NCBI GenBank assembly: GCA_937916405.1
Contig: CALFUF010000049.1
Location: 3,750-67,749, forward strand
Direction: 5' to 3'
Length of the DNA: 64,000 nucleotides
Origin: an uncultured Prevotella sp.
GTDB taxonomy: Bacteria; Bacteroidota; Bacteroidia; Bacteroidales; Bacteroidaceae
Below, piece after piece: positions 26,156-62,400 of the stretch; the first letter of the stretch is position 1; every line of letters starts with the position of its first letter. A program made the position numbers and the translations under genes. Below the pieces are notes generated by a model. It saw only the letters and a program-made list of their open reading frames with translations. It searched no databases and had not been told where the DNA came from.

Positions 26156-26184
26156 CTGTAGTAGTTCTCAGTTTTCATTCATTA

Positions 26185-29662: not shown

Positions 29663-29666
29663 ACAC

Positions 29667-29884: not shown

Positions 29885-29885
29885 G

Positions 29886-29980: not shown

Positions 29981-30002
29981 GGAAAGCGAGGTGAAACTAT
30001 AA

Positions 30003-30163
30003 GAGGTGAGAGGTGAGAGGTGAGAGGTGAGTGGTGAGAGGTGAGAGGTGAGAGGTAAGGGATGAGAGGTGAGAGGTAAGGGATAAGAGGTGAGAGGTGA
30101 GTGGTAAGAGGTGAGAGGTGAGAGGTGTGTGGTGAGTGGTGAGAGGTGAGAGGTAAGAGGTGA
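30003..30163. repeat. Heptamer tandem array (GAGGTGA consensus), about 23 units
   Basis: Read directly; variants GTGGTGA, GAGGTAA, GGGATGA. Confidence 0.95.
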
Positions 30164-30328
30164 GGGAAATGTTAAAATGAAAATTTGGGGAATCAAAAGT
30201 GTAAATTTCGGGTGCCGATTTCATGGTCACCTCGACAAGAATGACTATCTTTGCAGTGTCAATCAGAAGTTGCAACAACGAAAGACACACAATCAATCAA
30301 AATCATTAAACCTTAAAAATTTAAAACT

Positions 30329-34880: not shown

Positions 34881-34908
34881 TTAATTTAAATTAAAAACAT
34901 AATCGATT

Positions 34909-36816: not shown

Positions 36817-36825
36817 TCTTTCCAT

Positions 36826-36855
36826 ACCTCACAGGGGATGATGCCCCTGTGAGGT
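36826..36855 (+). terminator. 12-bp stem-loop after the putative major pilin gene
   Basis: ACCTCACAGGGG ATGATG CCCCTGTGAGGT. Confidence 0.7.
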
Positions 36856-36906
36856 GTATTAATTATTAATGAACGCACGAAGTGCGCATTCTCCCAGAGA
36901 GAAATA

Positions 36907-37953: not shown

Positions 37954-37975
37954 TCCTTTTTAATTAAGAACGTCC

Positions 37976-39595: not shown

Positions 39596-39605
39596 AGTTG
39601 AAAAA

Positions 39606-40754: not shown

Positions 40755-41793
40755 ATATGGTTTGGGACTGTTAGCCATGAGCTGTTGGCTGATTACTGCC
40801 TGCTCCTCCGACGGTGCGGGTGGTGACGGTACAGACGTGCCACGGCAGGGGCATCCCTTGCAGGTAGTACCCTATACTGCCAACTATCATGCCACCGACT
40901 TCCAGATGCGTGCAGTCACTGAAGGCTATTCAGCATATACCCCTGACCATGAGATCGCTATCGGCTTGTATGTCCTTGAAGATGGGAATATTGCGGGCAC
41001 TCCAGCAGTTAAACTCATCAGTTACAGTAATAACGACTGGCACTCACAGGCTATGGTGGAGGAAAACAAAGACTATACCATCTTTGGCTATATGCCTAAG
41101 AAAGACCCGATTTCATCGAGCATCAGCAAGAGTGGGGAGGTCGTCACACTGACCCTCTCGAACATCAGTACCGTCAGTGCCGATGATGTCTGCTTCATCA
41201 CTGGTGTCAAGGATAACGATGGTGACTTGCTACAAGGAAAGTTTGACTATCGAGGTAAGGCTGACAATAACTATCTCCGCTTGTTGCTGGACCACCTCTT
41301 TGCGTCCGTGAAGTTCAGTTTCCAAGTGGATGCTACCTACAACACACTGCGTACCATCAAGGTGAAGTCGCTGACACTGAACACGACAGCGGGGACCATG
41401 ACGGCAACGGTCAAGTTGACACCGAATACGACAGAAGACTACCCAGCCACTGTTGAGTATACAACACCTGCGGCAGGAACCTCCTCCGCCACCTTCTTTG
41501 AGAGTGTGGAGGGTGTGGAGATACCGACCACGACAACCAGTTTCGTGTGCTGCTTTGCTCCTGCGGTATCCGGCAACCTGACCCTTGTCACGACCTACGA
41601 TGTCTATGACAGGAAAGGGAACCTGATCCGTAAGGACTGCGAGGCAACGAATCAACTTCCTGATAACTTGGATTTGGCGAGCCAACCGACGAGAGGGCAG
41701 CAGGTGACGCTCACCCTGACGGTGAACCCTACTTACCTCTACCAGTTGTCGGACCCCGACTTGGATAATCCAACGTTTACGTTAGAAGAATAG
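40720..41793 (+). CDS. Fimbrillin-like lipoprotein
   Basis: ITACSS, QMRA, IFGYMP, LDHLFASVKF, RGQQVTLTLTVNP. Confidence 0.7.
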   Translation: MQVRVMRYITGKYGLGLLAMSCWLITACSSDGAGGDGTDVPRQGHPLQVVPYTANYHATDFQMRAVTEGYSAYTPDHEIAIGLYVLEDGNIAGTPAVKLISYSNNDWHSQAMVEENKDYTIFGYMPKKDPISSSISKSGEVVTLTLSNISTVSADDVCFITGVKDNDGDLLQGKFDYRGKADNNYLRLLLDHLFASVKFSFQVDATYNTLRTIKVKSLTLNTTAGTMTATVKLTPNTTEDYPATVEYTTPAAGTSSATFFESVEGVEIPTTTTSFVCCFAPAVSGNLTLVTTYDVYDRKGNLIRKDCEATNQLPDNLDLASQPTRGQQVTLTLTVNPTYLYQLSDPDLDNPTFTLEE

Positions 41794-41794
41794 A

Positions 41795-44700: not shown

Positions 44701-47700
44701 TAATGGTGGTTACGACGCTAAAGGCAAGGTGTCTCATACGGACATGCTGAATGCCTCCGCTTACGTGGAGTACCAGCAGGGTCGTGTGGAAAATATCTAT
44801 GGTGGCTGTTATGGTGTGTATGACTATACAGACGCACACTATGGCGAGTATTTCTATAACACTGATGGAGAAGGAACGATGGGTACCGCAAGAGAGGGCT
44901 ATTCTAAGCCCTGGCTGGACAATGCGTTTGTCAACTTCCGACCGACCGACAATATCAGCAATACCGTTAACCTCGTCTATGGCGCAGGAGAGGGCTACTT
45001 AGGTGAGAAAGAGGAGAACAAGATGCAGAACCGCAGTTATATCCTCGTGGATATCCCACAAACCATGACCTCCTTCAGCAGCACGGAGTTCTTCGGTGCC
45101 GGTGAGCGTGGTGGTGTAGGTATGGCTGTCATCGACCTTGCCCGTGGTAAAATCAAGGCAGTCTATGGTGGTAGTTACGAGGAGGGTGTCACCCGTCGTA
45201 CGGTGGTGAATGTCCCCGCAGGTTCTATCATCCAGTTGGAGAAGATTTTCGGTGGTGCCTACGGTACGTCTAATGAGCATTCTTGTGATGTCTATGAGGC
45301 TAATGTCAACTGGAACAGTAGTGACGCGCTGGTTGGTGGTTATCGCACGGGTATCTATGGTGGTAACAATGCTTTCCGCCGTACCTTATATAGTAAGGTG
45401 AACATCAATGCACCGGTATACTATGATAAAGACAATGAATACTATGCCACGGTCTATGGCGCCGGTTATGGTAAGGATACCTGGTCACAGTATACCGAGG
45501 TGAACCTGAACAATACCGCTCAGGTCTATGAGGTCTATGGTGGTGGACAACTAGGACGTGTCATGAACCAAATATCGACGGACGCTTGGAGGGCAGAGAT
45601 GGCGGCACAGACAGACCCTGTCACCATTGACCTTGGCTTGGACGACTACGAAGATACAGGTCTGGATAATGATCTTGCCATTGCCGAATACGATGGAAAG
45701 AAATACAATACCAACGTTCTGATTAAAGAGGGTGCTTGGGTCAGCGGCTATATATATAATGGTACTCGTAGCGGTGCCTATGCCTATGGTGGAGGACTGG
45801 GTTCAGACGAAGAAAACACTGGTGATGTCCATGGTACCACCTTTATTGGCTTGTTTGGCGGAAAGGTTGAAAAAGACATCTATGCAGCCGGAACCTCTGG
45901 TTCCGTGAATGATAAATACCATGTGTACGACTTCATCGCCAGTGCCAATGCTTATATCGAGGGAGGAACCTGCCGTAATGTCTATGGTGGCGGATGGAAG
46001 GGAAGTGTCGGTTACCATGACGGTGCTATCGACGGATCGACTGAGAATGATGTGTTGGGTGAGACGCATGTTGTCATTGGTAAACGGGATGGAAGTAGTT
46101 ATGTAGATGGTATTCCTGCCATTGAGCGTAACGCCTACGGTGGCGGTGAGGGTGGCGCCGTGTTCGGTACAACCAATATCACCCTGAACAATGGTTTTGT
46201 GGGTTATCGCTACTTTGCCGACGAGCCGACAGACAAGACACGATCCTATATTTCAGCAGGTGACGGCTACTACCAGGAGAAACTGGATGACGAGACATGG
46301 AACGGTGACGGTACTAACCGCCTCTATGACTCTGGTTGTATCTTCGGTGGTGGTTATATCGACAACAGTAGTGTGGACTTCAGCCATGTCTTTATGTATG
46401 GCGGTCATGTACGTAACTCCCTCTTCGGTGGTGGTGAGATTGCGGCAATCGGTCGTGGTGTCATCAGTGCCACTGGTGAGAACAACTCCGTACGTACCCT
46501 GCAAGGTATCTACAAGGCAGGACAGTCTAATGTCACCCTGTATGAGGGTCATGTCCATCGTAACGTCTTTGGTGGCGGTCGTGGTTACAACAACCTCGGT
46601 GAGGGTGGTACCCTCTATTCCGATGGTTATGTCTTCGGACAGACCCGTGTCTATATCCATGGTGGTGAGATCGGTAATGAGACTGTCAGCAGCGACGAGG
46701 AGCGTAAGGGTAACGGTAACGTCTTCGGCGGTGGTGATATCGGTTATGTCTATAGTGCCTACGAGGAAGACGGGAAACTGCATGTAGGTATCAAGCGCGG
46801 AGAACGTTATGGTGAAGATGAAGATAACCCTGGGGAAGGTTACTATTACAAATACAGAGTAGGCGACGATAGCAACTATGGCGCATATACTCCTGGAACC
46901 AAAACAGATACTGACGAAGGATGGAAAAAAGAGGATGATGAATATGTGCTCACCGAGGACTGCAAGGTGCTGGTGGAACCGCATCCACGTGTCACGAGTG
47001 AATCTGTTACTTATGATGGAGTAACTTATGATGTAGGTGATTATGTTCCTACCACTTACCTCAACACATTAGGAAACAAGGACGCCGCTGGTTGGTCATC
47101 CTTAGACGATTTCGGAATCATCATCCATAATGCCGTGTTTGCCGGTGGTAACACCTCGTCTGGTTCTGCGACTGTCTTTGCCAATGCCACGACGGTATTT
47201 GGTAATGCGACGGCATCTGTCCATGATGTCTATAACCGTGACCTTATCACTATCGGTTCTTCCCATGTCGGTGGACTTTACGGTGATGGTAACCTGACCT
47301 TCGTGGATGGTTACCGCGGACTGAACATCACGAACTACGGAACAGACTATTATAGTATCTCCAAAGAAATCTCGCTGAGTAAATATGAAGTCCTTCCTGA
47401 TCGTGAGAAAGCATATTACGAGTTGCGTTATCTCTGTAAGAAGGAATGTACCGACAAGGAAGGAAAAACTTACAAGTTAGGCTCCACGATCTCGCAAGAC
47501 GAGTTGGTGACCTTGTTTAACGGAATAAAAGATGGCGGGGTCTCTATCTTAGGTCCTGACGGTGAGCCTAATTCAACTTACTGGGTGGCTAATGGTGTCT
47601 GCTCCCGTTATGCCGGTCGCCCGATGAACACCATCCAGCGTGCCGACTTCTGCGGTGTGTGGGGTAGCCGTATGGTATTGCAGGGAGCACCAGACCGTGT

Positions 47701-50700
47701 GCCGGAGACGGTGGACTATACGAACTATACCATCAACCGTGTCCGTGAGTTGTCACTGAATAAGAAGGTGTCTGTCATTACTGCTGATGCCAGTGATGAA
47801 GAGAAGAAGGAGCATGGTAACTACTTCGGTATCTATAACGTTGTGAACTACCTCGGTGCCCTCAGTAGTGACTTTGACTTTGGCGATGGTGGAACAGGTA
47901 GTGATGTGGGAACTGGTACACCCCGTACGTCTGACAACACAGACACAGGAACCTATGGCCCACAATATGAAGGACAGACCTTCTTCGGGTGGAAGAAGAA
48001 CCATATCAACGACCGTACCCGTAATAATGGTAACAGCCATAACCAGGTGGCACTCGCCTCTGGTGTCTATCTGGAACTGACCTCTGAGAAGAGCACGGGA
48101 ACTGGTCTGAAAGAGAAAGTCTGGGGCTATATCACGGGTGTCGTCGAACTCGACCTCATCAATGTGCAGACTGGTGTCGGTGGCGGTTTCGTCTATGCGA
48201 AGAACGAGCATGGTAAACGCGGTAGGACGGGAGTCACCCACCATACCATCACTGACCTGAACGAAGGGGCTGTCAGTTACAAGCAGTTCAAGTATGAGAC
48301 GGATGATAGTAAAAGGGAAGAATGGCAATCGTCGGGTAACTTCGTGCATAGCACCCAGACCATCATCGACGACTGTTATAACATCAGTGGTAAGTACCTG
48401 AAAGCCGACGGTGTTCCTGCCCACTACTGGTATATTAAGGGTGAGGTATATGTCTATGACCAGTATATCTCCGCCTATACCGGTGCTCCTAATGCTTACA
48501 GTGAGCAGGTGGAGATCCCGTTGACCATCACGGCGGCATCGCATGGAAAGATGAAACTGCTGAATGTCATGCCGAACAAGTATGCTTACTATGCTGTCAA
48601 CAACGGTACGACACAGACAAAACTGGAGGGTGACCGTAAGATCGTCATCAACGATGTGGAATATGGTGTCAATACGCCTATCAGTTATTGGGACTGGTAT
48701 CTGCTGACGGCTTCAGAGAAGGCGCTCTTCGTAGAGGATACCTATTATGTGAAGGAAGACTGTTGGATTGGTGATACAGAATACAAGGCAGGAACGGTCT
48801 TGTTGAGTTCTGAGTATAGTGCTATCAGAGGTACTGATGATACCGCACCGACGGTTATCCAGAAGAAAGAAGTCAATGATGAGATCAAGGATGTTGAGGT
48901 TGACTTTGACTTTGTCTTCCGCTCCTCTAACAACCTCAGCCATGATACAGGTTACTTGTTGACCTATAAGGTGAACAACCCTTCTAAGTGGAATTCTACT
49001 GGCGCCACCTATTGCCTGAAAGACGAAACAGGTAGTATCCTCGGACAGCGTTCCTACAAACAAGGTGAAATCATCTCGAATGAAGTATATGACACTTACC
49101 AAACGGCGAAAACAACTTATCCTTCAGCGGTGAAAGACGGTCAGGCATCCTTCGAAAAAGCATATATCGTGACCAGTCAGGTGACGGTTCCTGCTTCAGG
49201 CAGTACGCCAGAGTCCCACTACTATGCCGGTACTACCATCTCGGCGACCGAAGCCAGCAACAGTGCGTTTAGCGGTCATGTGGATGAGGCATACGTCTGC
49301 ACACACACCATCCAGTTGAGTCCTACCGAGTATATCTTCATCAATACCAAGATGTCGAAGGCAGATAAGGATGCTTATCTGACAACTTATGCTGGTAATG
49401 AAGAGTTAATAAAGGAGATCAATGAGGGCATCGTGCCAGCATACTATTGTACTTCCGAAGGTCTCTACGGAGGTAATTACTATAATACAGGTGAGAACTA
49501 TCGTGCATTAGAGGCTTGGGCTTCTATGTCGGAGGATGACCGTGAGCACTTCTCCTTCAACTATGACGCGCTCGACTTGCTGATTGACCCGACCTACAGT
49601 CGTCGTGCTGATGGTACACTTCGTCGTCCTGACGGACAGAAGTACCAGTACGACTCGGCGGCAGAGACCTTGGCAGGCGCTCAGGCTAACCCGCCACAGT
49701 TCTCATTGGAGCAGCCAGTGGACTATACCGCTACCTATAACGGTACTGATACGGGAACTTATAATGGTGTCACATTGAGTAATGGAGGTGAATACACTCG
49801 TGAACAGTTTGAGAAACTTCCTAACGAGCAGCGTTATTATAGTACCATTGCGGTGAAGGACGAGACAACCATCTATGTGGTGAACAATGGCTTCCAGGTG
49901 GGTAACACTCCTTATGCCGTGGGTACAACCATCTCCAGTGAGACCTACAATAGTTTGGGTGACACAGAACGAGCCAATATCACCAGACTGACTTTCTCTG
50001 AGAGTGATAAGAATCAAACGTTCTATTTCTGCCGTGAGGCTTATGAGATAGGAACTGGTGGAACAGCGATTACCAGTGCTGGTGTGGGTGGTGCCACGTC
50101 ATATAGCGGTGGATCAAATGTGCCAGTAGGTGTCGTGATCGGTGAAACTGACTATAGTCGTCTTGTCAATCATCAGAAGGACTTCACCATCCATGGCATC
50201 GCACCAACAGCGACCACCACCCTCTATGTAAGTCGTGAGAGTGACATCTTCGACCTCTCGAAGGAGAAGATCATCACCGTCATCTATGAGTACGACTATG
50301 AGGAGAGTGACTCACAAGGTAATGTCACTCCCGTCAGTGAGCGTCATGTGGTGAATATTCATATTGAGTTCAAGAGCGGTATACCTATTGTAGAGGATAT
50401 CAAGCGTCCGCAGATCATCCTGCCGGGTACGAAACTGGGTCTTCGTGAACCTGTCGTAACACCAGGCGCTTACGAGATTACCGGTGGTGGATGGGAGCTG
50501 TTTGAGAATATCGACGATGCCGAGAGTCATATCAATGGTATCGACTACCTCCCGAACAGTGACCAGCTCTACTGGTATCAGGATGGCTACCACGTGGCTT
50601 ACTATGCGAAGACCTACTTAGGTAAGACCTATTCGAACCATGAGCCGATCAGCGTGGCAAACTATCACGACCTTACGAAGGTGATGGACGACGGGAAGCA

Positions 50701-53305
50701 TCACTACTACGTGGATATTCCTGATGCCCATGTGAAACGTGATCCGAAGATTTACATCACGGACGGACAGAACGGTGCCCAGCAGTTGAAGGACTTCTTC
50801 GATTTGAGTACGGGCGAAACGTTGACGGGTCATGCTTCTCTTAACGAACAAGTAAAGGATTGTCAGAACTTGGAGTTCTTTATGCATACCAATGTGGAAG
50901 TACCTGAGGGTACTGACTGGACACCTATTGGTAATGATACTCATTGCTTCGAAGGTAATCTGCATGGTGACGGCTACTATATCAGTGGACTGAGCAACTC
51001 GTTGTTCGGAAACCTCTGCGGTAGTGTCTTTAACCTCGGTGTCAAAGGCTCGTTCACGGGTGCTGGTATCGCTGAGACGGGTAGGGGCTATGTGGAGAAC
51101 TGTTGGGTCAGCACCAGTAGTACGGAGGCAAAGACCTCGATGCCTGTCTTCCATAATCCGACACGTGGTAGTGGCTATCAGATGGTGAACTGCTACTATC
51201 AGGAGGAGGATGATGCCACTAATAAGTACACGAACCATAGTGGTTCTTACGGTATTCCTACCCGTATGCCGGCGAGTGCCTTCTACAACGGTACGGTTGC
51301 CTACGACTTGAACGGCTTCTATCTCTACAAACGTTACAATGACGGTAAGAAGACCGCATCTGGTACTGACTATACCTATTATATTATTAATAAGGAAGAC
51401 GGTACCTTGTCTGACCCGCAGACTGGTCATTATGAGAAGACCCATGCACAGTACTGCTCTTCTGGTGTGGAGAATATCTACCTGGGTGGCGGTTATGTCG
51501 AGGATCGCTTCGCTGACGGTGACTTCCGTTATGCTGACGGTGAGATACCTGAGACGAAAGATGTCCGTATGTATACCGATGAGGACGAGAAGACCTTCTT
51601 CTATCCTATCTGGCCTGACGACTACCTCTACTTCGGACAGATGCTGACCTACAAGTGGAACGACGCACGTCCACATGAGGAGGTGCCCTCACATATCTAT
51701 AAGAGCAGCGGCAGACTGGCGGATAACGACCAGAGCAACCGTGTCTATCGTGCTCCTGCCTACTATCAGAGCAAGACGATGGATGTCGCCCACTTCAATC
51801 CTGCCGTCAACCTCGTTGCCTACAGCAAGCCCGAGAACCAGTATGACACGAACCTGACAGCGGCTTATCCTAACATGACCGCTATCGACTTTGCCGGTCA
51901 CAACGATACAGCCTATCAGCTCGGGCTCAATGGCAAGTGGTTCTACCAGCCGTTGCTCGATGACGACGGTCTTATCAGCATCGCTAACCGCGACGAGACA
52001 CCGAACCTGCTCGTTTATGCTCCGTCATCAGAGCAGAACGAGAAGACCTATAATGTACTGACGGGTTACTTCACCGAGCCAGTCTATAGCGATAAATATC
52101 ATAATGATAACAACCGTTGCGTGGATATCTCTTCAACGCAAGCGATCTATGGACATCTGGTACAGAGTGACCTCACGGCAACCAATGACCATCAGTTGGT
52201 CGACAAGCGTGACTTCAACTGTCCTATCAGCTACAGCTTCGATAGCGACCATCGTATGTGGCACCAGCGTACCCCAGACCATTATGTCGATCTGACGAAG
52301 GGTTGGGAGGCTGTCAGTCTGCCGTTCACCGCCGAACTGGTAACTACCCAGCAAAAGGGTGAGATCACCCACTTCTACAGCGGTAGCCGTTCCGTGGACG
52401 AGAACGGTACCAAGACGGGTCATGAGTACTGGCTCCGTAAATATAAGGGTAAGGCAGAGAAAGAGGGAACGCCCGATACCTATATCGCAGCATTTAACTA
52501 TCCGGATGCCGCAGGTGACTCCAAGACGGTAGGTAATACATTCTTGTGGGACTACTATTACAGTAAGAATGCTCAGAAAGATGCGAATACGGATATCTAC
52601 CAGCGTTACTATGAGACGGAACGCAACCTGGCGAAGTATCCGTTGTTGGCGAATGCCGTACCATATATCATCGGATTCCCAGGTACGACTTACTATGAGT
52701 TCGACCTGAGTGGTCAGTGGACACCGAGTCATACCGCTACACCTGCTCCTGCGAGACTCGACAGGCAGACCATCACCTTCGCTTCTAATCCTGGCGTTAC
52801 GATTCAGGTGAGTGACGATGAGGGTGATGGCACGACAGCTGACGACTATATCTTCAAGAAGAACTACGTCAGCAAGACGCTGGATGCAGATGCCGCATAC
52901 ATCATGAGCAGTGACGGTGGCAGTTTCGACAAGATAACGGCGGCAACGACGACCGTTCCGTTCCGTCCGTACTTCGAGAAAGCTCCTGCCTCCGGCTCAC
53001 GTCAGATGGCAAGCCGTATCCTCTTCGACAGCGATGAGTCGTCCTTCGCCTTCGGTGATGAAGACCCGTCGAAGGAGGAGATAGGAGGGGGCGACCTGCT
53101 CTTCACCATCCGCAAGCATGAGATTGCCGTGACCTCGTCACTCCGTCATGCCGCCGATGTGCGTATCGTCAACGTGAGTGGTATCACCGTTGCCAACTTC
53201 ACCATCCAGCCGGGTGAGACCGTCGAGCGTCACATCCCGATCGCAGGTGTCTACATCGTCCGTGCCGATAACGGTCGCATCCAGAAGAAAATCGCTTTAA
53301 AATAA
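41795..53305 (+). CDS. Giant (3836 aa) secreted protein with many (V/I)(Y/F)GGG repeats and T9SS-like C-terminal domain
   Basis: Signal peptide, numerous NVYGG/VFGGG motifs, WTPIG..FEGNLHGDG module, C-terminal DVRIVNVSG..GVYIV..KKIALK. Confidence 0.82.
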   Translation: MTDIYNIIRCSFLKRLLLLAVMVTGHWSLVNGQILIGGSVYGGGNAGDVSGNTAVTVNAGDLNEVFGGARQANVGGHAFVNINGEKASDYILINRVYGGNDISGQIGTNSELTKTIPEGITEASANNVDNTWNAFVRISSSNTVEQTNEKGKVYLGQLFGGGNGAYDYDSKKLEDNTANPYYGLTKPELDRTYLEIVGGSMVYAFGGGNNATVKENAVIYVENTSPVVNSVKDAAGYELLTDARIKEMGFNPGYTYPTSAAYQIGSFFGGNNLEAMHIRPKWNLQKGKIRNIYSGGNRGAMTSPVGLLLEIDPQGTTEEEKKQLIIDNVYGGCRMADVHPLTEAGGDVASDDIQLPESEGYKFPPGLSARVLVRGGDINNVYGGNDITGRVYGGNAVGVYTSINGDVYGGGNGAYPYTDNAYLMNDQTYGDLYYTIPVGKTSVEALNAFRPNAEQVSIRLVGTESKPTIIGGSVYVGGNCATLATTKADARVELKIGSYVYADQVFLGNNGEGMVETNEEVKEGTVVVKHEGVLRTMKSTRITSDESKFSSIDLLTDATTFASYMDGVAMSLMPRVTFDDSHKLLNPDPADYEPYSSYFGSFFCGGNVGSMTSSGKTTIDFDHKVVIFNKLVGGSNNANVKGTDYNAAYEGGLLGNADSNGDKLELNLSGLKIQPKRWKNPDDKSEGLIWNTIYASTGIKTDPVTSGENEDSNEYDLDRRLTGGNIYGGCYNSGHVNGNVILNLNETIFDRKIVFDEVELNTESGEPKLYGNDSYKITKRHTGVLLDKQGMDVLGTALNVFGGGYGKDSEIWGSTTINLNKGYTFQIFGGGEQGVIGKSDDGDGKSITFNNKTFKYNPKYSCTINVNGQYAGVYRGHQDDNDDMAEAEFIYGGAFFGPVCGNTTINLGNGRVFNTFAGSCMADILGHTETYIGYNGGFPYVRDYVYGGNDLGGKILGLGNFESRVRTNDNGGYDAKGKVSHTDMLNASAYVEYQQGRVENIYGGCYGVYDYTDAHYGEYFYNTDGEGTMGTAREGYSKPWLDNAFVNFRPTDNISNTVNLVYGAGEGYLGEKEENKMQNRSYILVDIPQTMTSFSSTEFFGAGERGGVGMAVIDLARGKIKAVYGGSYEEGVTRRTVVNVPAGSIIQLEKIFGGAYGTSNEHSCDVYEANVNWNSSDALVGGYRTGIYGGNNAFRRTLYSKVNINAPVYYDKDNEYYATVYGAGYGKDTWSQYTEVNLNNTAQVYEVYGGGQLGRVMNQISTDAWRAEMAAQTDPVTIDLGLDDYEDTGLDNDLAIAEYDGKKYNTNVLIKEGAWVSGYIYNGTRSGAYAYGGGLGSDEENTGDVHGTTFIGLFGGKVEKDIYAAGTSGSVNDKYHVYDFIASANAYIEGGTCRNVYGGGWKGSVGYHDGAIDGSTENDVLGETHVVIGKRDGSSYVDGIPAIERNAYGGGEGGAVFGTTNITLNNGFVGYRYFADEPTDKTRSYISAGDGYYQEKLDDETWNGDGTNRLYDSGCIFGGGYIDNSSVDFSHVFMYGGHVRNSLFGGGEIAAIGRGVISATGENNSVRTLQGIYKAGQSNVTLYEGHVHRNVFGGGRGYNNLGEGGTLYSDGYVFGQTRVYIHGGEIGNETVSSDEERKGNGNVFGGGDIGYVYSAYEEDGKLHVGIKRGERYGEDEDNPGEGYYYKYRVGDDSNYGAYTPGTKTDTDEGWKKEDDEYVLTEDCKVLVEPHPRVTSESVTYDGVTYDVGDYVPTTYLNTLGNKDAAGWSSLDDFGIIIHNAVFAGGNTSSGSATVFANATTVFGNATASVHDVYNRDLITIGSSHVGGLYGDGNLTFVDGYRGLNITNYGTDYYSISKEISLSKYEVLPDREKAYYELRYLCKKECTDKEGKTYKLGSTISQDELVTLFNGIKDGGVSILGPDGEPNSTYWVANGVCSRYAGRPMNTIQRADFCGVWGSRMVLQGAPDRVPETVDYTNYTINRVRELSLNKKVSVITADASDEEKKEHGNYFGIYNVVNYLGALSSDFDFGDGGTGSDVGTGTPRTSDNTDTGTYGPQYEGQTFFGWKKNHINDRTRNNGNSHNQVALASGVYLELTSEKSTGTGLKEKVWGYITGVVELDLINVQTGVGGGFVYAKNEHGKRGRTGVTHHTITDLNEGAVSYKQFKYETDDSKREEWQSSGNFVHSTQTIIDDCYNISGKYLKADGVPAHYWYIKGEVYVYDQYISAYTGAPNAYSEQVEIPLTITAASHGKMKLLNVMPNKYAYYAVNNGTTQTKLEGDRKIVINDVEYGVNTPISYWDWYLLTASEKALFVEDTYYVKEDCWIGDTEYKAGTVLLSSEYSAIRGTDDTAPTVIQKKEVNDEIKDVEVDFDFVFRSSNNLSHDTGYLLTYKVNNPSKWNSTGATYCLKDETGSILGQRSYKQGEIISNEVYDTYQTAKTTYPSAVKDGQASFEKAYIVTSQVTVPASGSTPESHYYAGTTISATEASNSAFSGHVDEAYVCTHTIQLSPTEYIFINTKMSKADKDAYLTTYAGNEELIKEINEGIVPAYYCTSEGLYGGNYYNTGENYRALEAWASMSEDDREHFSFNYDALDLLIDPTYSRRADGTLRRPDGQKYQYDSAAETLAGAQANPPQFSLEQPVDYTATYNGTDTGTYNGVTLSNGGEYTREQFEKLPNEQRYYSTIAVKDETTIYVVNNGFQVGNTPYAVGTTISSETYNSLGDTERANITRLTFSESDKNQTFYFCREAYEIGTGGTAITSAGVGGATSYSGGSNVPVGVVIGETDYSRLVNHQKDFTIHGIAPTATTTLYVSRESDIFDLSKEKIITVIYEYDYEESDSQGNVTPVSERHVVNIHIEFKSGIPIVEDIKRPQIILPGTKLGLREPVVTPGAYEITGGGWELFENIDDAESHINGIDYLPNSDQLYWYQDGYHVAYYAKTYLGKTYSNHEPISVANYHDLTKVMDDGKHHYYVDIPDAHVKRDPKIYITDGQNGAQQLKDFFDLSTGETLTGHASLNEQVKDCQNLEFFMHTNVEVPEGTDWTPIGNDTHCFEGNLHGDGYYISGLSNSLFGNLCGSVFNLGVKGSFTGAGIAETGRGYVENCWVSTSSTEAKTSMPVFHNPTRGSGYQMVNCYYQEEDDATNKYTNHSGSYGIPTRMPASAFYNGTVAYDLNGFYLYKRYNDGKKTASGTDYTYYIINKEDGTLSDPQTGHYEKTHAQYCSSGVENIYLGGGYVEDRFADGDFRYADGEIPETKDVRMYTDEDEKTFFYPIWPDDYLYFGQMLTYKWNDARPHEEVPSHIYKSSGRLADNDQSNRVYRAPAYYQSKTMDVAHFNPAVNLVAYSKPENQYDTNLTAAYPNMTAIDFAGHNDTAYQLGLNGKWFYQPLLDDDGLISIANRDETPNLLVYAPSSEQNEKTYNVLTGYFTEPVYSDKYHNDNNRCVDISSTQAIYGHLVQSDLTATNDHQLVDKRDFNCPISYSFDSDHRMWHQRTPDHYVDLTKGWEAVSLPFTAELVTTQQKGEITHFYSGSRSVDENGTKTGHEYWLRKYKGKAEKEGTPDTYIAAFNYPDAAGDSKTVGNTFLWDYYYSKNAQKDANTDIYQRYYETERNLAKYPLLANAVPYIIGFPGTTYYEFDLSGQWTPSHTATPAPARLDRQTITFASNPGVTIQVSDDEGDGTTADDYIFKKNYVSKTLDADAAYIMSSDGGSFDKITAATTTVPFRPYFEKAPASGSRQMASRILFDSDESSFAFGDEDPSKEEIGGGDLLFTIRKHEIAVTSSLRHAADVRIVNVSGITVANFTIQPGETVERHIPIAGVYIVRADNGRIQKKIALK
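41859..41893. repeat. Heptamer array (TGGTCAN)x5 in the signal-peptide coding region
   Basis: TGGTCAC TGGTCAC TGGTCAT TGGTCAA TGGTCAG. Confidence 0.85.
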
Positions 53306-53316
53306 AAAGTTAAAAT

Positions 53317-54201
53317 ATGACACACGATATAGATTTGCAGAAAAGTCAACAGGGTGAGATTATCCTCTACCAGCCTGACGAGACCGTGCGGCTCGATGTC
53401 AGGTTGGAGGATGAGACTGTGTGGCTGACGCAGGCACAGATGGCGGAACTCTTCCAGAAGGACCAGTCTGTGATAGCAAGGCATATTGGCAATGTGTTCC
53501 GTGAGGGAGAACTTGATGAAAATAGTAATATGCAAATTTTGCATAATACTCTGTCAAAATATAAGCCGACAAAGATATATAGTCTTGATGTTATTATTTC
53601 TGTAGGCTATCGGGTTAAAAGTAAGAGAGGTATCCAGTTTAGGATTTGGGCAACATCTGTTTTAAGAGATTTTCTTCTTCGTGGATATGCTGCAAGTCAG
53701 CGTATCGAGATACTGAAAGAAAATGTGGACGAACGTCTTTTTAAACATGAAAAAAGGATAGAGGCAATAGAAGAAAAGATTGATTTCTTCGTACGTACAA
53801 ACCAACCACCTGTAGAAGGCGTGCTTTTTGAAGGTCAGATATTCGATGCCTATAAGTTGGTGGAAGCACTTGTTAAGTCTGCGAAACGGGAGATCGTCTT
53901 GATTGACAACTATATAGATGCTTCCGTCTTCGATCTGCTTGAAAAACGAGAACAAGGTGTCAGTGCAACCATCTATACCGAGCATGTAGGGCAGTCGCTC
54001 TTGCATCTGCAGCAGTTGAACCACCAGCAGTACCGTCGGCGCATAGAGTTAAAGGAGTACAACAGCCGTTTCCACGACCGTTTCCTTATCTTAGACGACC
54101 ATCTCTACCATTTTGGAGCATCCTTCAAGGACTTAGGCAAACGCTTGTTCGCTTTTGAACTGATGGGCATTGATAAAAATACTATTCTGAACCAACTATA
54201 A
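53317..54201 (+). CDS. RhuM-like DNA-binding protein with C-terminal PLD-like (HDRFL) domain, copy 1
   Basis: GEIILYQPD, ETVWLTQAQMAELF, LDVIISVGYRVKS.RG.QFR.WA; C-terminal IDNYID, FHDRFLILD, YHFGASFKDLGK. Confidence 0.82.
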   Translation: MTHDIDLQKSQQGEIILYQPDETVRLDVRLEDETVWLTQAQMAELFQKDQSVIARHIGNVFREGELDENSNMQILHNTLSKYKPTKIYSLDVIISVGYRVKSKRGIQFRIWATSVLRDFLLRGYAASQRIEILKENVDERLFKHEKRIEAIEEKIDFFVRTNQPPVEGVLFEGQIFDAYKLVEALVKSAKREIVLIDNYIDASVFDLLEKREQGVSATIYTEHVGQSLLHLQQLNHQQYRRRIELKEYNSRFHDRFLILDDHLYHFGASFKDLGKRLFAFELMGIDKNTILNQL

Positions 54202-54226
54202 TAGATATGACACACGATATGAAAAC

Positions 54227-54271
54227 CATGTGCAACAAGTCTGCAAACTAATTAATGAACTAAGGGAATAG
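54227..54271 (+). pseudogene. 3' stump of an Abi paralog
   Basis: HVQQVCKLINELRE* aligns with HFQKICQKIDKLKPI* of 54708..55406 and is followed by the same RNA unit. Confidence 0.6.
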
Positions 54272-54323
54272 AAAAACAATACCCACCGGTTTGACTTACG
54301 TCAGGGACACGGTGGGAATCCTC
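54272..54323 (-). ncRNA. Putative Abi-associated antitoxin-like small RNA, copy A
   Basis: Promoter box TATCTTTG (54335-54328), stem CCCACCG/CGGUGGG, inner UGAC-GUAA-GUCA, U-rich tail; ends approximate. Confidence 0.65.
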
Positions 54324-54393
54324 ACTGCAAAGATAGGTAATTATTCGATATGAACCAGATAAATCCGCAAGGAATTAACAAAAAATAACGACT

Positions 54394-54604
54394 ATGACAC
54401 GAGATATGAGGCATACAGGCGAAATCATTCTCTATCAGCCCGACATCACAAAGTGTCAGACACTTTGTGATCAGATACGACAATTGCAGCAGGAATACGG
54501 CACAAATTTCTCAGAAAAGAATTATAGAAAAAGCCAAGCACCGTTTGGCCAATTCAGCAGACACGTCTGGTGGATTGCAGAAAAGTATATTGAAACCCGT
54601 ATAA
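54394..54604 (+). pseudogene. Chimeric remnant: RhuM 5' end fused to an Abi-like 3' end
   Basis: MTRDMRHTGEIILYQPD (RhuM start), then KCQTLCDQIRQL (Q..C..I..L as in the Abi C-terminus) and ATTGAAACCCGTATAA matching the Abi end ATTGAAACCCATATAA. Confidence 0.55.
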
Positions 54605-54653
54605 AAACCAAACCCGATAGCTTGACTAATGTCAGGGGCTACCGGGAATCAGC
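54603..54653 (-). ncRNA. Putative Abi-associated small RNA, copy B (divergent sequence, same fold)
   Basis: TTTG-20nt-TACCTTTG promoter (54689-54658), stem CCCGGUAGC/GCUAUCGGG, inner UGAC-AUUA-GUCA, U tail. Confidence 0.65.
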
Positions 54654-54707
54654 GGTGCAAAGGTAATATTATTTTCGGAAACTACCAAATAAATTAAGAA
54701 AAAAAAT

Positions 54708-55406
54708 ATGGAATATAGGATTTTTGAGCATATTTTGTCACCTAACAGGATGCAAAGGTACCTAAATGCCTGTCATGGGGATACTCGTAAAGCAATGACG
54801 TTATATAGATATAACCTTCACCTTTCACATGAGATGTTCACTATCATTAGCTGTTTTGAGGTAGCACTCCGAAATGCAATAGATAATCAATTAAAGCCTT
54901 CTTTTGGCGATAGTTGGCTGAGGGACTCTATCTTGCCTAATGGTTTTTTAACTTCGCGTAATACGGTAAAAACTTATGAAATTATAAAGCATACTTATGA
55001 CAAATTAGTTGCTGAGGGGAAATACAGCCATACTAAGTTACTTTCAGGTTTGGATTTCGGTATTTGGAAGTATATGTTCTCCCCTGCACAATTCAATGCT
55101 ACAGGGCGTGTCCTTTTGCGGATCTTCCCTAATAAGACACGTTCAACACCACAAAAGCAGTATAATCATTCATATATTTTTAATGAATTGGATAAAGTAA
55201 ATACTTTGCGTAACCGAATTGCTCATCATGAGCCAATATGTTTCTTGTTTGAGCAACCAGTAATAGACACTGGTTTTATACTTAATGAATATAACAAGAT
55301 ACAAATCCTATTTCAATGGATGGGTATTGATAGTCGGTCAATGTTATACGGTCTTGACCATTTTCAGAAGATATGCCAAAAGATAGACAAATTGAAACCC
55401 ATATAA
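54708..55406 (+). CDS. Abi family (Abi_2/AbiF-like) HEPN ribonuclease
   Basis: LS..RM.RY, LYRYN..LS, FEVALRNAI, LDFGIW, HEPN motif RNRIAH. Confidence 0.8.
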   Translation: MEYRIFEHILSPNRMQRYLNACHGDTRKAMTLYRYNLHLSHEMFTIISCFEVALRNAIDNQLKPSFGDSWLRDSILPNGFLTSRNTVKTYEIIKHTYDKLVAEGKYSHTKLLSGLDFGIWKYMFSPAQFNATGRVLLRIFPNKTRSTPQKQYNHSYIFNELDKVNTLRNRIAHHEPICFLFEQPVIDTGFILNEYNKIQILFQWMGIDSRSMLYGLDHFQKICQKIDKLKPI

Positions 55407-55455
55407 AACAATACCCACCAGTTTGGCTTTCGTCAGGGACACGGTGGGATTCAAC
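55405..55455 (-). ncRNA. Putative Abi-associated small RNA, copy C (adjacent to the intact Abi stop)
   Basis: TTTG-20nt-TATTTTTG promoter (55491-55460), stem CCCACCG/UGGUGGG, GAAA loop; 106-bp unit nearly identical to 54273..54378. Confidence 0.65.
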
Positions 55456-55550
55456 ACTGCAAAAATAGGTAATTATTCGATATGAACCAAATATTTCCGC
55501 AAGGAATTAATAAAATATAACAAGAGCCACGAATCAAACGAATTGAACGA

Positions 55551-56468
55551 ATGAAGATGACACACGATATAGATTTGCAGAAAAGTCAACAGGGGGAGAT
55601 CATCCTTTACCAGCCAGACGAGACCGTACGGCTCGATGTCAGGTTGGAAGATGATACCGTGTGGCTGACGCAGGCACAGATGGCGGAGTTGTTTCAGACC
55701 ACCCGTAACAACATAACCCTTCATATAGGCAATGTATTCAAAGAGGGGGAACTTGTTGAAACTTCAGTTCGTAAGGATTCCTTACTAACTGCTGCAGATG
55801 GGAAGAATTACCGTACTAAGCTCTATAACTTAGACGTAATCATTTCAGTCGGTTATCGGGTAAAGTCACAACGAGGTACGCAATTTCGCCAATGGGCAAA
55901 TAAAGTCATTAAGGATTATCTGCTCAGAGGCTTTGCTATAAACCGTCAGTTGGAACGCTTGGAGTCGCGTATGGATGCCCGCTTTGAAAAACAACATGAT
56001 GAGGTATTGCAAATAAAGCAAACTTTGGCAGACCATCAGGAAAAAATAGATTTCTTCGTACGTACGAATCAACCACCTGTAGAGGGTATACTTTTTGAAG
56101 GTCAGATATTCGATGCTTATAAGTTGGTGGAAGCACTCGTAAAATCTGCGAAGCAGGAGATAATTTTGATTGACAACTATATAGATGCTTCCGTCTTCGA
56201 TCTGCTTGAGAAACGGGAACAAGGTGTCAGTGCAACCATCTATACCGAGCATGTGGTACAGTCGCTCATGCATCTGCAGCAGTTGAACCAGCAGCAGTAC
56301 TGTCGGCGTATAGAGTTGAGGGAGTACAACAGCCGTTTCCACGACCGTTTCCTTATCTTAGACGACCATCTCTATCATTTCGGAGCCTCCTTCAAGGACT
56401 TAGGCAAACGCCTGTTCGCTTTTGAACTGATGGGCATTGATAAAAATACTATTCTGAACCAACTATAA
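55551..56468 (+). CDS. RhuM-like protein with C-terminal PLD-like domain, copy 2
   Basis: Same motifs as copy 1; near-identical N- and C-termini, divergent middle. Confidence 0.82.
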   Translation: MKMTHDIDLQKSQQGEIILYQPDETVRLDVRLEDDTVWLTQAQMAELFQTTRNNITLHIGNVFKEGELVETSVRKDSLLTAADGKNYRTKLYNLDVIISVGYRVKSQRGTQFRQWANKVIKDYLLRGFAINRQLERLESRMDARFEKQHDEVLQIKQTLADHQEKIDFFVRTNQPPVEGILFEGQIFDAYKLVEALVKSAKQEIILIDNYIDASVFDLLEKREQGVSATIYTEHVVQSLMHLQQLNQQQYCRRIELREYNSRFHDRFLILDDHLYHFGASFKDLGKRLFAFELMGIDKNTILNQL

Positions 56469-56473
56469 TAGAT

Positions 56474-59400
56474 ATGACACACGATATGAAAAGAAATATA
56501 AGATATATCCTTTCCCTCCTCCTGCTGTTCGTGGGAGTCGGGGAGGCTTGGGGACAGACTACTGACTATTCGGGAGTGTATTATATTGCAAATAATAACA
56601 CGAATACATATATACTTGATGCGACAACCAACTGGTATCTTGTCCCTGCATCTAATGGTGGTGACAATACTGTAAGTGCAACGGCATGGCAATGGAATAA
56701 TGATGCGAACACACCCTTAGTGACCACTTTCCAAACTCAAAAAGATACTAACTCTCTTTGGAAAATTGTGAAGGAAGGGGATTATTACTACATCATTCAC
56801 TTTAAAACAAGTATGTACTTAACATATAATCTCCCTGTTTATACCAACCGACGCGCCTTCCATCTTCAGGCAACTGCTGATGGTGATAATTCTCTTTTTA
56901 CCTTCACAAAAAGAGATGATGGGTCATTCAACATCAACCGCAAGGGACTTACTTCTGGCAATTGCTGGCTAAATCCGTCTAAGGGAAATAAGGAATACTA
57001 CTATGGATTGACTGCAGACGGACAAACCGAAGTTGCTGGTCTGCTAGGTTTATATAATGATAAAAAAGATAACGGTTCCATTTGGTTCTTAGAAAAGGTT
57101 TCACCAACAATAGAAATCATAAATACTGATCAGGTAAAAATTACCTTCCCCATAAATGGAGTAACTATCCATTACACCATAAACGGAGATACGCCAGATG
57201 AAAACAGTACCCTCTATTCTGGAACAACCTTTACCCTAACTGAAAGCATGCTATCCATTAAGGCTATCGCCTATTCTGGAGGCAGTCCATCTGGGATTTC
57301 AACATTCACTCCTATAGTATATCCAGGTGATTCCCATTCTTATCTTGTGCAGAGCGTGGAATGTAATGACTTCTACATGCTACCTGGAGATGATGACAGC
57401 AACATCAGTGAGAAAAGAATCACCACATCAAGTTTGGCTCGCTCATCCATGCAATGGTGCTTTGAAGGTGTCGGGAGGATTAATGGCTATCAGTATTACT
57501 ATCTGAAGAACAAAGAAACAGGACAGTATGCACGATATTATAACAATGGTAGTGATGTGGTTTCATTAAGTACTCCCGAAACATTTAATGCGGATGGAAC
57601 AAACAGGGACGAATACAAGTTCTGCATCAAGTATTATGAAGATGCCACAGCTCCAGGCTATTACATCAAACCGTTAGCCACGACCTATGAGGGAGGTTTG
57701 AATAAAGGTAGTGGAAACAATAATAAAAATATTATTTGGATAACTGGAGCAAATAACACAAGTGCCCGTTGGAAGTTTGTGCAAGTATCTGATGGTAAGA
57801 TGCCTGCACCTACGGATCCATTCCCTTTCACCGTTTCCGATGACGAAAAGATATCATATTATAAAATAGGTCATGGTGCCCAAATCCCATCCACTTATTT
57901 TATCATTCCATCAAGTGACTATGCTAATACTTCTTCTTCTTCTGCTGATGACAATATGGCTTGGTTTTTTATGGAGGCAGAATCAGACAGCTGGTCAACA
58001 TACTATTATATTGTAAATGCAGTATCGGGTTACTATCTGTATTATCGAGGACCAGAAAACAGTGATGGAACCACGCAAGCATTCCAGACGAAACTATTCT
58101 CCAGTTCCGACAAAGACCGTTATCAGTTTGCTGTGCCCAAGACCACAGAAACAAACACGAATGGCAAGTATTACATGGTTCCGAAAATACTGAAAGAACA
58201 GACCCACAATGAATATATCTCTGTTTGGCGTGACAACGATAATCCACTGAAGACTCAAAAAAGCAGAGAAAACAATAACACAAAGTGGACTTTCACCTCT
58301 ACCACGTTCACATGTGAAGCCCCGGTTATTACATACGATGAGATTCAAGGTACTGCGTCCATTACTTGTCCTACTGGCGGTGCAAAGATATACTATGTTC
58401 GCTATACTGATGACACAGGTGCAGACCCTGATTTGACAAATGCTACTATCAAGGCAACGCTCACGCTCTACGACGGCACACCTGTTTCGATGGTAGGCTA
58501 TACTTATATTAAAGCCATCGCTGCAAGAAGTTATGATGATGGCAGCGATCAGTCTTCAGTAACAACCTATGGTCCCATAGATGTTTTCAAGTGTGTAAAA
58601 CCAGTCATCAGTTATGACTCAGAAAACAACAAAGTGACCATCACCAGTGCTACGGAAAATGCAAGAATCTACTATGTCATTGGGGACGGAGACATTGATG
58701 CCTCTGGTGAAGGAAGTCCAAATGGTGTTTCTTTTTCTGTTGGTGAAGAACGGACTATTAAGGCTGTTGCCGTGTTGCCAGGAACTCCTATTTCAATATC
58801 AGATGTCGCTACATGTGCTGTTATATCATCTTGGTTAAGCAGTTATGCACTTGATGGTTACTATATCCTTACTAATAATTTCACATCCAGTGAACCGATA
58901 GGTACTGAAACAAATCCCTTTACAGGTACCATTGACGGAGGTTATAATCCTATTACCCTTACTCACCCATTAGTTGGGGTCGCACAAAATGCTACTATTA
59001 AGAATGTCATAGTCGGCAGTGCTACTATCAGTACCAGTGGCAATGCTGGTGCGATAGCGAACAAAGCCACGGGAACTACTCGTATCTACAATTGCGGCGT
59101 GCTGGGTGGTTCCGTCAGTGGTGGAACGAACGTTGGAGGACTCGTCGGACTTATCGAAGCGAACTCATCTGTGCGAGTGGTCAATTGTTACAACTATGCT
59201 ACAGTGAGTGGCGGTAGTACAATGGCAGGCATCGTGGGCAAGAATGAAGGCACAGTGGGTGATGTGCGTATCGCTATGTGTATGATGTATGGTGATATGA
59301 CAGGAGGTACGTCGCCCGTGTATGCTGGCAACCACACCTCAAATGTCAGTAACTTTACCGAGTATAACTTCTGGCGCAGCAAGGCTAATTTGACCTATTC

Positions 59401-62400
59401 TGTTTATAATGACCAGCTTGCCATTGACAAGGATGAATACCTGACTCGTTTCCCTTTCTACCGCCATATTCTGAACACACACCGTGAACTGGCAGCGTGG
59501 TTCCTGTTTGGTACTGCTGGTAGTAGTGTTGGCAGTATTACAGCATACCAGGTGGATGAGGTGGGTCATTGGGTGCTGAAAACGGAGAAAGCGCCTTACC
59601 CAATTATTGAGAAATGGGAAAAGAAAACGAAGAAGATCACTGTAGACCTCAAAGGTAATTTACCTAATACAACAGAAGATAGTAAAGGGCGTTTGCTGAC
59701 AGATATGGGAAGTGGCGGTTACCTCACGGTGAATGTCACTATCAATGGCAGTAGCTATTCCTCGCAGTTGCCCATCACCGATATGAACCAGGATAAGTTT
59801 GACTATACCTGGGGTAAGGTGGTGCTGCCCTTTGCCAATGAGTATGAAGTGAATACCGACTACAGCAAGGTTTGCACCGGTTGGAAGATTACAGGTGTCA
59901 CAGGTGGAACGGCAGGTTCCTTTGAAAAATATAATGTGTCCGATCGTGACTGCACGGCTAAGGATCTCTTTTCCACCACAGGCTTTATCTTTGCCCAGGG
60001 AGGCAACTACGTCGTTCCATACGGTGTAACTGCCATTAACATAGAGGCTAATTTCGCTACCGCCTACTACCTTAGTGATGAAGCTTATGAGATTGGTTAT
60101 TCGGGCGATAATTCTGGACAGGGTTATAAAGATAGAACTGCATTAGGTGGTAGTATGCCAGATATGTATCATGGTCAGACAGTCTATCATACATTGAAAG
60201 CGGCTTTATCTGCAATGAGTGCTTCTGGCACCACGCACAGTCAAGCGGTAGTACTGGTAAGTAATTACCATCAAGATAGTGAAGACTTGTCCAGCCTTAC
60301 AGCTAAAGGACTAACCATTATGAGTATCGATGCCGACAACAACCAAGAGCCTGACTATGCATTTTATAGCAATAACACACAGGATCGCCCTAAAATTCCG
60401 CCTACACGTTTTGACTTTGTCGCATTAATCCCCATGGGAATGTCGTCGCGTGTCAACAACAGTACTTTCTATCCACTCATCCCAATTTGGAAACCATTCG
60501 GTTGGTTTGAGATGACGGAGACAAGCCTGAGCATGACAGACCAGTTTGAGTTGGACTCAGGAAACTTCAACACGAGCGACAACGATACCAAGAACTACCG
60601 CTGTATCATCAATAGCGGCTATTTCACTCAGATGGTAAGATCAAGAGATGTAAATTGCTCAAAAGTTAAGTATTATCAGATAGGCGGCAATGCATACATC
60701 AAAGAGTTTTATCCTGGCAGTCATAGTGCAAAGACCAATACCACTACATTGGTTCCAATTAATGTAACAGGCGGTGAAATAGAGCAATGCTTTATGACTG
60801 GCTATGGAAAAGAAACAACGGATGAAAAAGCGACAGCAATCGGTTCGGACATCTATTTTTGGTGTGCAGGTGGAAAGATTGACAAGTTCCTTGGGGCTTA
60901 CATGGAGAAGCCTAAAGAGACTTCGAGTAGTGATGGAAATGTTAATATGACGGCAAAGATAGACCATGCCCTGATTGGACGCTTCTTTGGTGGCGGAACT
61001 TCCCCGAAAGCACAAATCACGGGTGATATTGATGTAACCATCAACAATAGTAAGGTTGACTTCTACTGCGGTGGTCCTGAGTTTGGGGATATGACGAGTG
61101 GCAAAACTGTCACCACCCATGCCACAGGCACTACCTTTGGTGAATACTATGGTGCAGGTTTTGGTGGTACAGCGATAACCTATACGAATGATGAAGATAA
61201 CACTGGACAGGGTATTGGCAGCGCTACAAAACCTACAGTGGACTATCCTTTGAGTTTCTTTACCAATTATTTTGTAAAACAGCGATTGAAATACAAGGAA
61301 GGCTATGGAATAGGTTGCTGCTATAAATTTGAGTTTTTATTTAATTCACGTGGTCATGGTAGCGTGGCTCGTTTCTACACAGGTTATGCTCAGTTCTCAT
61401 TGGCTACTACGGGTAATGTGACCAATGAACTGACTGACTGTATGATTAAGAAACTTGCAGCCGAAGAGACAGTGTTGGGTAAGGTTGCTTCATCTGGTGA
61501 CTTCTATGGTGCAGGTTGTCAGGGTAAGGTGAACGGTACAGTAACCTCTACGCTGACTGGCTGTACTGTAGACGGCAGTGCGTTTGGTGGTGGCTACAAG
61601 GCTGAGTCGAATGAAGTAGATGTTTATCCTGTAACAGCACCTACGATGTCTGTCTATACCAGAGAGACGGGTATCTTCTCTGATTTCGGAACTGTGGAAC
61701 CTGAGACATTCACATGGGAGCAAGGAACGGCGGAAAAGAATAATAAGGCAGAAGGAAGTGTGCTTTATAGTGGAACGGACATTACATTGTCTGACCTCGG
61801 AAACGTGACAGGAGAGATTTCTATTACAGTCGATGGTGGAACTGTAGGAGGTAGCGTGTATGGAGGAGGCAATGAAAGTAAGTCACTCGATAATACCAAT
61901 GTGTACATAAAGAGCAACACTAAAATAGGAACCCCGGGAGAAGGTGGAGCCCAATACGGCAACGTTTACGGTGGAGGTAACGGTAAGGCAGATAATTTCG
62001 AGGCTGGTCTTGTGAAGGGTAATACCAATATCGAGATCAGTGGGTCGCCTACTATATTACATAATGTATATGGTGGTGGTGCCTACGGTTCGGTGGGTGA
62101 CTTCGATTACGATGCCACTACAGGCTTGCCGACGGCTCGTAAAGCGGAAACCACAGGTGGAACGGCGAATATCACGATTACGGGTGGTACCATCGGAACG
62201 ACTGGTAGTAGTAATGGTATGGTGTTCGGCTCGTCACGTGGTGACGTGGCTACTCCTGGTGCAGACGACATCGATCCTAACGACCGTCTTGCCTGGGTCT
62301 ATGATACCCATGTCGTGATTGGCACTCAGAGCACAGCAGATGCTGATCCTGTATTGACGACTCCATTGATCAAGGGCTCTGTCTATGGCAGTGGTGAGAA

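Follow-up and report, generated by a model that had tools for sequence, protein, structure and literature searches.

Abi toxins of the AbiF type that are controlled by small RNAs are already known. Among the closest described systems is the Prevotellaceae pair PbAbiF/AbiFr (PDB 8VZ6; Zilberzwige-Tal et al. 2025, via PMC12737573, PMC13064643, PMC12373285), where, in the accessible parts of two accounts, AbiFr blocks PbAbiF through bulge nucleotides (PMC12737573, PMC13064643). For a second pair, AbiF-Cd/RCd22, the accessible parts of PMC12373285 and of a preprint report that RCd22 rescues in trans, tolerates compensatory changes in its stem and co-purifies with AbiF-Cd. Here, we describe a 64,000-nt stretch of DNA from an uncultured Prevotella sp. 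(contig CALFUF010000049.1, positions 3,750 to 67,749; the window), in which a short Abi gene lies among three copies of a small, structured RNA unit. We consider it probable that this gene encodes an AbiF-like toxin, that the units encode RNA antitoxins, and that their presence in threefold is historical.

The Abi gene (54708..55406, + strand) is intact and encodes 232 aa with an R168-x4-H173 motif. The product matches Pfam Abi_2 (PF07751) at 37.5 bits (E 3.8e-9), above the curated cut-off of 25.6; R168 and H173 are invariant, and the RxxxxH motif is present in 108/108 full-length homologue sequences. The top match in the PADLOC defence library is PD-T4-5 (PDLC04038, E 7e-14, residues 7-182), next to a weak AbiD match (E 3e-7). 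The predicted structure (pLDDT 85.5) has PbAbiF 8VZ6 as its top Foldseek match (E 4e-3, TM 0.56), and VIA-align superposes the two with a Z of 13.0 that is close to the chance range of helical bundles (rmsd 3.1, 203 aligned residues, 19% identity); Cas13d is the second structural match (Z 6.7). A profile search finds 8VZ6 weakly (E 0.05), and a PDB search with the single Abi sequence gave no match. The Abi/HEPN identity proposed by the sequence-only reading is supported by the Abi_2 score, the intact motif and the top fold match, and the predicted product is a short AbiF-like HEPN ribonuclease that would act as a toxin. The same genome carries a second, long Abi_2 gene (locus L001, G000:C36:1930-2508; 328-aa frame) in the classic AbiF layout, with a co-oriented promoter and hairpin upstream, and this hairpin gives no RF03085 match.

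Three minus-strand units accompany the short gene, each consisting of a -7 box of what we take to be the Bacteroidota-type consensus, a -33 box 20 nt further upstream, a hairpin and a U-rich tail, all present as the sequence-only reading had quoted them. Copy A, with predicted ends at 54271..54322, has its hairpin at 54316-54282 and a U-tail to ~54271; its promoter (54328..54359) combines a -7 box at 54335-54328 with a variant -33 box, TCTG, at 54359-54356. Copy B (predicted ends 54603..54653, hairpin 54646-54613) follows a promoter at 54658..54689 (-7 box 54665-54658, -33 box TTTG 54689-54686). Copy C (55403..55454, hairpin 55448-55414) is convergent with the Abi gene and has its promoter at 55460..55491 (-7 box 55467-55460, -33 box TTTG 55491-55488); it abuts the gene as had been noticed, its U-tail overlapping the Abi stop codon. 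A and C form a direct repeat of 117 nt at 90%. The two-tier hairpin claimed for all three holds for A and B, which fold far better than shuffled sequences (z -3.4 and -4.2) into an outer stem, a CCC/A bulge and a 4-bp inner stem, whereas C folds weakly (z -1.3), with the A-U pair of its inner stem broken. A covariance model of the family finds three copies in the whole genome, namely A (63.3 bits), B (71.6 bits) and C (59.1 bits), all of which had also been used to train it. Downstream-type copies have a conserved AT-rich element on the far side of the -33 box (54362-54389 and 55494-55521), which to us resembles a XerD half-site.

Relatives of the locus indicate that these units belong to a family. 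Homologues of the Abi protein were collected from GTDB contigs (best 80 of 512), viral contigs (3) and 150 genomes of the genus, yielding 112 scored loci, among which some genomes are counted twice, the window itself twice, and kin are not independent. Among the matches listed, a strict pattern places a promoter-hairpin-U-tail unit at most 200 nt from the Abi gene in 98/112 loci. The 14 misses comprise seven loci in which a looser pattern or the covariance model does find the unit, three at contig ends and four with distant proteins, which have a different promoter-hairpin on the same plan; distant homologues from an order-wide search likewise have their own hairpin on this plan. For proteins at least 50% identical, the strict pattern finds, again among the matches listed, 80 upstream-divergent, 8 downstream-convergent and 3 downstream-sense units, the remaining loci being the window (2) and 10 of the misses (the seven recovered and the three at contig ends). 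The -7 box of upstream-divergent RNAs mostly lies 42-54 nt from the Abi ATG. Every close homologue with assembled flanks among the matches listed has an RNA unit beside it.

The 42 distinct RNA sequences keep 93.5% of 539 stem cells paired with 79 two-sided changes, a level reached by 0/500 shuffles, and controls slid along the sequence pair at most 43%. The bulge letters (CCC/A) are nearly invariant, while the apical loop varies (3-10 nt). A -7 box count of 85/86 is circular, the box having been part of the search pattern; the valid test is a promoter-free query, in which 31/33 matches have the -7 box at a fixed place (one last-base variant allowed) and 24/33 have an exact -33 box. The units are thus one family of ~45-nt RNAs with a covarying stem and a conserved CCC/A bulge. 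Neither the units nor the related loci gave a relevant match in Rfam, including the abiF motif RF03085 with which the sequence-only reading had proposed to check them; since RF03085 also misses the hairpin before the long Abi_2 gene of L001, this says little on function. In a pattern scan of viral contigs for phage mimics, limited to one stem type, none of eight stretches was a mimic, seven being chance matches in coding DNA and one an ordinary Abi-linked copy.

More distant Abi tiers have their own bulge and loop types on the common plan. Further uncatalogued promoter-hairpin RNAs lie beside distant Abi_2 clades (L107, L108, L110, L111, L214-L216, L218, L219), one type having a CCUCUCCC bulge and GAUGA. 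L112 and L213 have a longer RNA type, which by eye is also present upstream of the L186 gene (L186:4130-4270), so that this gene would have two RNA types.

Comparison with these relatives suggests a separate history for each of the three copies. Before A lies a stump (54227..54271, + strand), the 14 C-terminal codons plus stop that remain of an otherwise deleted Abi paralogue; this stump had been recognized from the letters, and it equals the C-terminus of homologue P0053 letter for letter. Locus L186 has the undeleted form of the A cassette: its positions 4023-4043 are identical to window positions 54205-54225, its cassette end matches 54225-54473 at 85%, and ~900 bp in between, including nearly all of Abi, are absent from the window. 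Judged from these alignments, A is a true orphan, and the only one of the three.

B, which had also been called an orphan, precedes the intact Abi gene at a distance of 43 nt, the position most often seen in the family. Its stem type is the commonest upstream type and is seen in 0/8 convergent loci, and it scores highest of the three with the family model that all three helped to train. The window Abi protein clusters with upstream-type relatives (support 95 and 89) in a quick tree from which 5 duplicate, partial or frameshifted loci were left out. In locus L192 (98% identity across 1049 nt), B is preceded by the 3′ end of a YhcG/DUF1016 gene that is intact there (387 aa, PF17761 and PF06250) and of which the window keeps two pieces; the remnant at 54477..54604 (+ strand) has an internal deletion of ~750 nt and stops with a 4-codon Abi-like tail. 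The second Abi-like end reported before B thus shrinks to the last 4 codons and stop, with 17/18 nt common to the flank of C, the rest being the YhcG/DUF1016 gene end. Because B occupies the canonical partner position, it is not simply an orphan; that label is rejected on the upstream site together with the L192 gene end.

C belongs to the downstream type. In L176 and L186, the sole family copy beside an intact Abi gene has the same inner-stem allele, so C may work, and the idea that its weak fold marks a dead copy is unproven. In the history that we favor, B, the upstream partner, would have arrived together with the intact gene, C would be a downstream-type copy of the same family, and A would be what remains of an Abi cassette after the ~900-bp deletion. 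A further public run has contigs for 54536-54921 (1 difference) and 54904-55442 (7 differences), so the joins B-Abi-C did not arise in assembly, provided that the window does not itself derive from that run. Two sheep-gut metatranscriptome runs offer matches as assembled contigs only (share 0.07, up to 15% mismatch allowed), and such contigs carry no readable strand, ends or level of RNA.

The surroundings suggest how several cassettes may have come together. The Abi gene is flanked by two RhuM-family genes and then by two giant genes, and a short motif, ATGACACACGATAT, occurs five times in 53317-56487 (at 53317, 54207, 54394, 55557 and 56474); its flanks carry an internal ATATGA direct repeat. 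The first RhuM-family gene (53317..54201, + strand, 294 aa; PF13310 E 3e-17, PADLOC PDC-S05 E 3e-114) starts at the motif. The next occurrence (54207..54220, + strand) forms the left edge of the deleted Abi cassette of A, and a variant is followed by a RhuM-like 5′ fragment and a cassette flank (54394..54473, + strand). The second RhuM-family gene (55551..56468, + strand, 305 aa), also with Pfam and PADLOC matches, has the motif at 55557, and the last occurrence (56474..56487, + strand) lies at the start of the next giant gene. In the window as well as in L164, L062, L068 and L193, the motif overlaps the start codon and marks gene boundaries. Its density is 4.0 per 10 kb in 27 giant-gene loci vs 0.19 in 85 upstream-type loci (21-fold), the motif having been defined from the same giant-gene loci in which it was counted. 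It lies on one strand per locus in 75/76 cases, with about one per boundary in L164.

Convergent arrangements of Abi and RNA are typical of loci that mix giant secreted-type genes with RhuM, YhcG and AAA-ATPase genes, and Bro-N genes also occur in motif-marked arrays. One contig joins 53306 directly to 56472, the whole block being absent; others have an extra ~1.3 kb at the left junction or join RhuM genes end to start, some of them maybe from other organisms. This gene turnover at junctions would explain how several Abi-RNA cassettes met in one locus. The motif looks like an integron-like cassette site; no integrase was noticed by eye among the ORF starts of the 62-kb G134 contig, and a literature search found no description of the motif. 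Across 33549-53305, 56474-64000 and 17375-28797, giant genes (3836, >2500 and 2926 aa; few or no Pfam matches) follow a fimbrial-type operon (DUF3575/OmpA, FimA, Mfa-like). At ~29550-30300, minus-strand short tandem repeats reading as LTSHLSP-like peptides adjoin a HU-like gene and a PIN-like gene pair, both by eye.

Each unit would be a separate gene for a ~45-50-nt RNA, composed of a promoter, an outer stem, the CCC/A bulge, a short inner stem and a transcript-ending U-tract. A GC stem followed by a U-rich tail is also what a plain terminator, or a chance hairpin, would look like, but a promoter lies at a fixed distance directly upstream of each hairpin, there is no minus-strand gene to end, and the linkage to Abi occurs in three orientations. 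Linkage, covariation and dedicated promoters together argue for small independent RNA genes, and the terminator explanation, which the sequence-only reading had named as its own refutation, is barely credible. The conserved bulge, the varied stem and the mobile position, combined with published binding of RNA to AbiF, lead us to infer a type III-like antitoxin: the evidence favors an RNA that binds the Abi protein and most likely holds its RNase off, as described for PbAbiF/AbiFr and AbiF-Cd/RCd22. By analogy with known type III systems, a phage that shuts down host transcription would let the RNA decay, thereby freeing the toxin. An RNA that serves the nuclease as a required cofactor or primitive guide, rather than as an inhibitor, would fit the strict one-way linkage equally and would suit the structural match to Cas13d. 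However, these RNAs are without a variable single-stranded spacer, their variation being confined to the apical loop, and the AbiF RNAs in the accessible accounts inhibit their partners; we regard a cofactor role as very improbable.

A type I-like mechanism, in which the RNA or its transcription represses Abi through antisense or promoter collision with no protein binding, deserves more weight and is still unlikely. A, B and C are all antisense to the + strand operon. Moreover, an opposing -7 box lies within 90 nt past the RNA 3′ end in 42/73 upstream-type loci and 0/10 downstream loci, compared with a background of 5.6% per 90 nt of locus DNA (mostly coding), and promoters also stand face to face in distant tiers. 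The RNA of those 42 loci is perfectly complementary to the leader of the toxin mRNA, which makes a cis layer likely, and there a type I-like mechanism could suffice. Yet in 5/5 sense-downstream loci, Abi has its own promoter, the RNA does not overlap the gene, and RNA-mRNA pairing is no better than in shuffles, so antisense cannot be the common mechanism. Neither does antisense need conserved bulge letters amid freely covarying stems. A co-oriented leader upstream is not the arrangement in the close family, and the one sense-upstream case (L111, distant tier) likewise speaks against repression by antisense. The type III-like antitoxin therefore remains our preferred reading; in the many relatives whose toxin and RNA promoters point at each other from either side of the hairpin, it may come with additional cis repression, while the window Abi gene has no opposing promoter and would rely on read-through.

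Loss of the toxin with retention of the promoter and RNA, which had been proposed for the window, is shown by genome comparison to be common and recurrent, with some of the retained copies decaying. The family model gave 50 matches in 28/150 genomes of the genus, from which G013:C28 was dropped as a terminator behind a tRNA-like sequence. Of the remaining 49 copies, 25 neighbor an intact Abi gene (in one case across a contig break), 4 neighbor a broken one and 20 have no Abi nearby; thus 24/49 copies have a broken or no Abi, and in the same genomes 21/21 full-length close-family genes have an RNA. A pattern scan of metagenomes, with 30 loci analysed from 32 stretches and several of them near duplicates, adds 33 copies, of which 18 have an intact Abi, 7 a broken one and 6 none, the other 2 lying behind a few-codon tail grafted on other genes. 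The comparison of L186 with the window gives one such loss directly. Another is found on a public contig of run X2, where the window's own Abi is deleted from 54704 to 55272, active site included, while B is kept. This one-way pattern is what addiction predicts, although the gene is a ~7-fold larger deletion target than the RNA and part of the asymmetry is therefore neutral. Since the toxin can be lost freely and the antitoxin cannot be lost first, RNA-only relics would pile up in a gene-shuffling locus, where the copies are probably redundant, contribute no more than dose and decay slowly.

Whether such relics are selected bears on how the three RNAs are viewed. Orphan and extra copies might be kept as a library against incoming Abi elements (anti-addiction) or raise the trigger threshold of the resident toxin, which we consider unlikely. 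Roughly half of the copies are orphans, among them seven of several types in genome G066 and three in G054; L192 also came to have three copies, its third unit being a different one; and in G013, G118 and G066 two different RNAs stand in tandem behind one promoter. A perfect -7 box is kept in 17/22 orphans, which fits selection as well as recency. However, the -7 box is lost in 5/22 orphans vs 0/23 linked copies (Fisher p 0.02, kin not independent), and beside orphans the first or last codons of Abi often survive, as they would after a plain deletion (several retain the first). Nor is a specificity spectrum evident: in the close family, by the quick tree, one stem type partners many protein clades and near-identical proteins use different stems, so copies are probably interchangeable. 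In the window itself, the three promoters lie 330 and 800 nt apart with RhuM and YhcG fragments between them, and the regular repeats in one transcript of a CRISPR-like or ToxI-like array are not seen. The purpose-built antitoxin array envisaged earlier therefore gives way to cassette debris, the stem types not tracking clades, and we retain the historical reading of the triple.

The tandem variants, ~60-66 nt apart behind one promoter, lie at L098:1295-1415 (G013), L099:2297-2417 (G118) and L156:3839-3953 (G066). G062 (L157) has a promoterless RNA pair behind a tRNA-like gene, and the eight RNA copies of G066 (L146-L150, L156) include seven with no adjacent Abi, two of which keep the first Abi codons. 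It is a speculative and rather doubtful thought that selection makes Bacteroidales keep orphan and tandem AbiF-type antitoxin RNAs as a library that can expand and that disarms incoming elements addicted to Abi. If so, the two-RNA, one-promoter units and the seven-orphan genomes would be extant transitional forms from a single RNA antitoxin to a repeat array, and the RNA gene of this short HEPN clade would be a free-standing, position-independent module.

The RNA family appears to be uncatalogued: in the accessible text of the literature searched, including two ncRNA-discovery preprints, we found no description of the family, its free position or its orphans, and Zilberzwige-Tal et al. 2025 (Cell) may cover the clade. 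What emerges is a widespread family of candidate RNA antitoxins for a minimal, 230-aa AbiF-like HEPN RNase of gut Bacteroidales, and because the carriers include cultured Segatella copri and Prevotella corporis, direct testing is possible. With an RNA gene at three positions that diverged in tiers with its protein, the family is a natural set for mapping RNA-HEPN recognition, a step thought to precede Cas13. The toxin-less copies and tandem pairs, in turn, make it possible to ask directly whether RNA antitoxins without a toxin are debris or serve against addiction.

Compared with known systems, the window resembles the lactococcal AbiD/AbiD1/AbiF group in its Abi_2 family membership and the adjacent non-coding element that this group needs; as far as the accessible accounts go, the group differs in its longer proteins (AbiD-like, 345 aa) and co-oriented upstream element (PMC13064643, PMC11381338). 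PD-T4-5 (PDLC04038) is a 309-position model, only partly covered by the window Abi. ToxI repeats are made as one transcript that is cut by the toxin, and ToxN has a different fold; unlike those repeats, each RNA copy of the window has its own promoter. The likeness to type III ToxIN/AbiQ lies in the several RNA antitoxin copies and in antitoxins with no toxin (accessible parts of PMC13064643, PMC7354431, PMC3594212). AbiF-Cd/RCd22 (RF03085), according to the accessible part of its account (PMC12373285), likewise pairs an Abi_2 toxin with a hairpin RNA in which stem structure outweighs stem sequence, as in the window family, and the two motifs within one RCd22 RNA resemble the tandem pairs of G013, G118 and G066. 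RCd22, however, is a co-oriented leader with a terminator, whereas the window copies are separate genes with no RF03085 match. PbAbiF, at 300 aa, is longer than the 232-aa window protein and shares 19% identity with it, and AbiFr, compared here through its description in the accessible accounts, differs from the window-family RNAs, which are separately promoted and mostly divergent or convergent. By those same accounts, the window and PbAbiF/AbiFr have in common an Abi_2/HEPN fold, an RxxxxH motif, a small structured RNA with a bulge and a Bacteroidales host.
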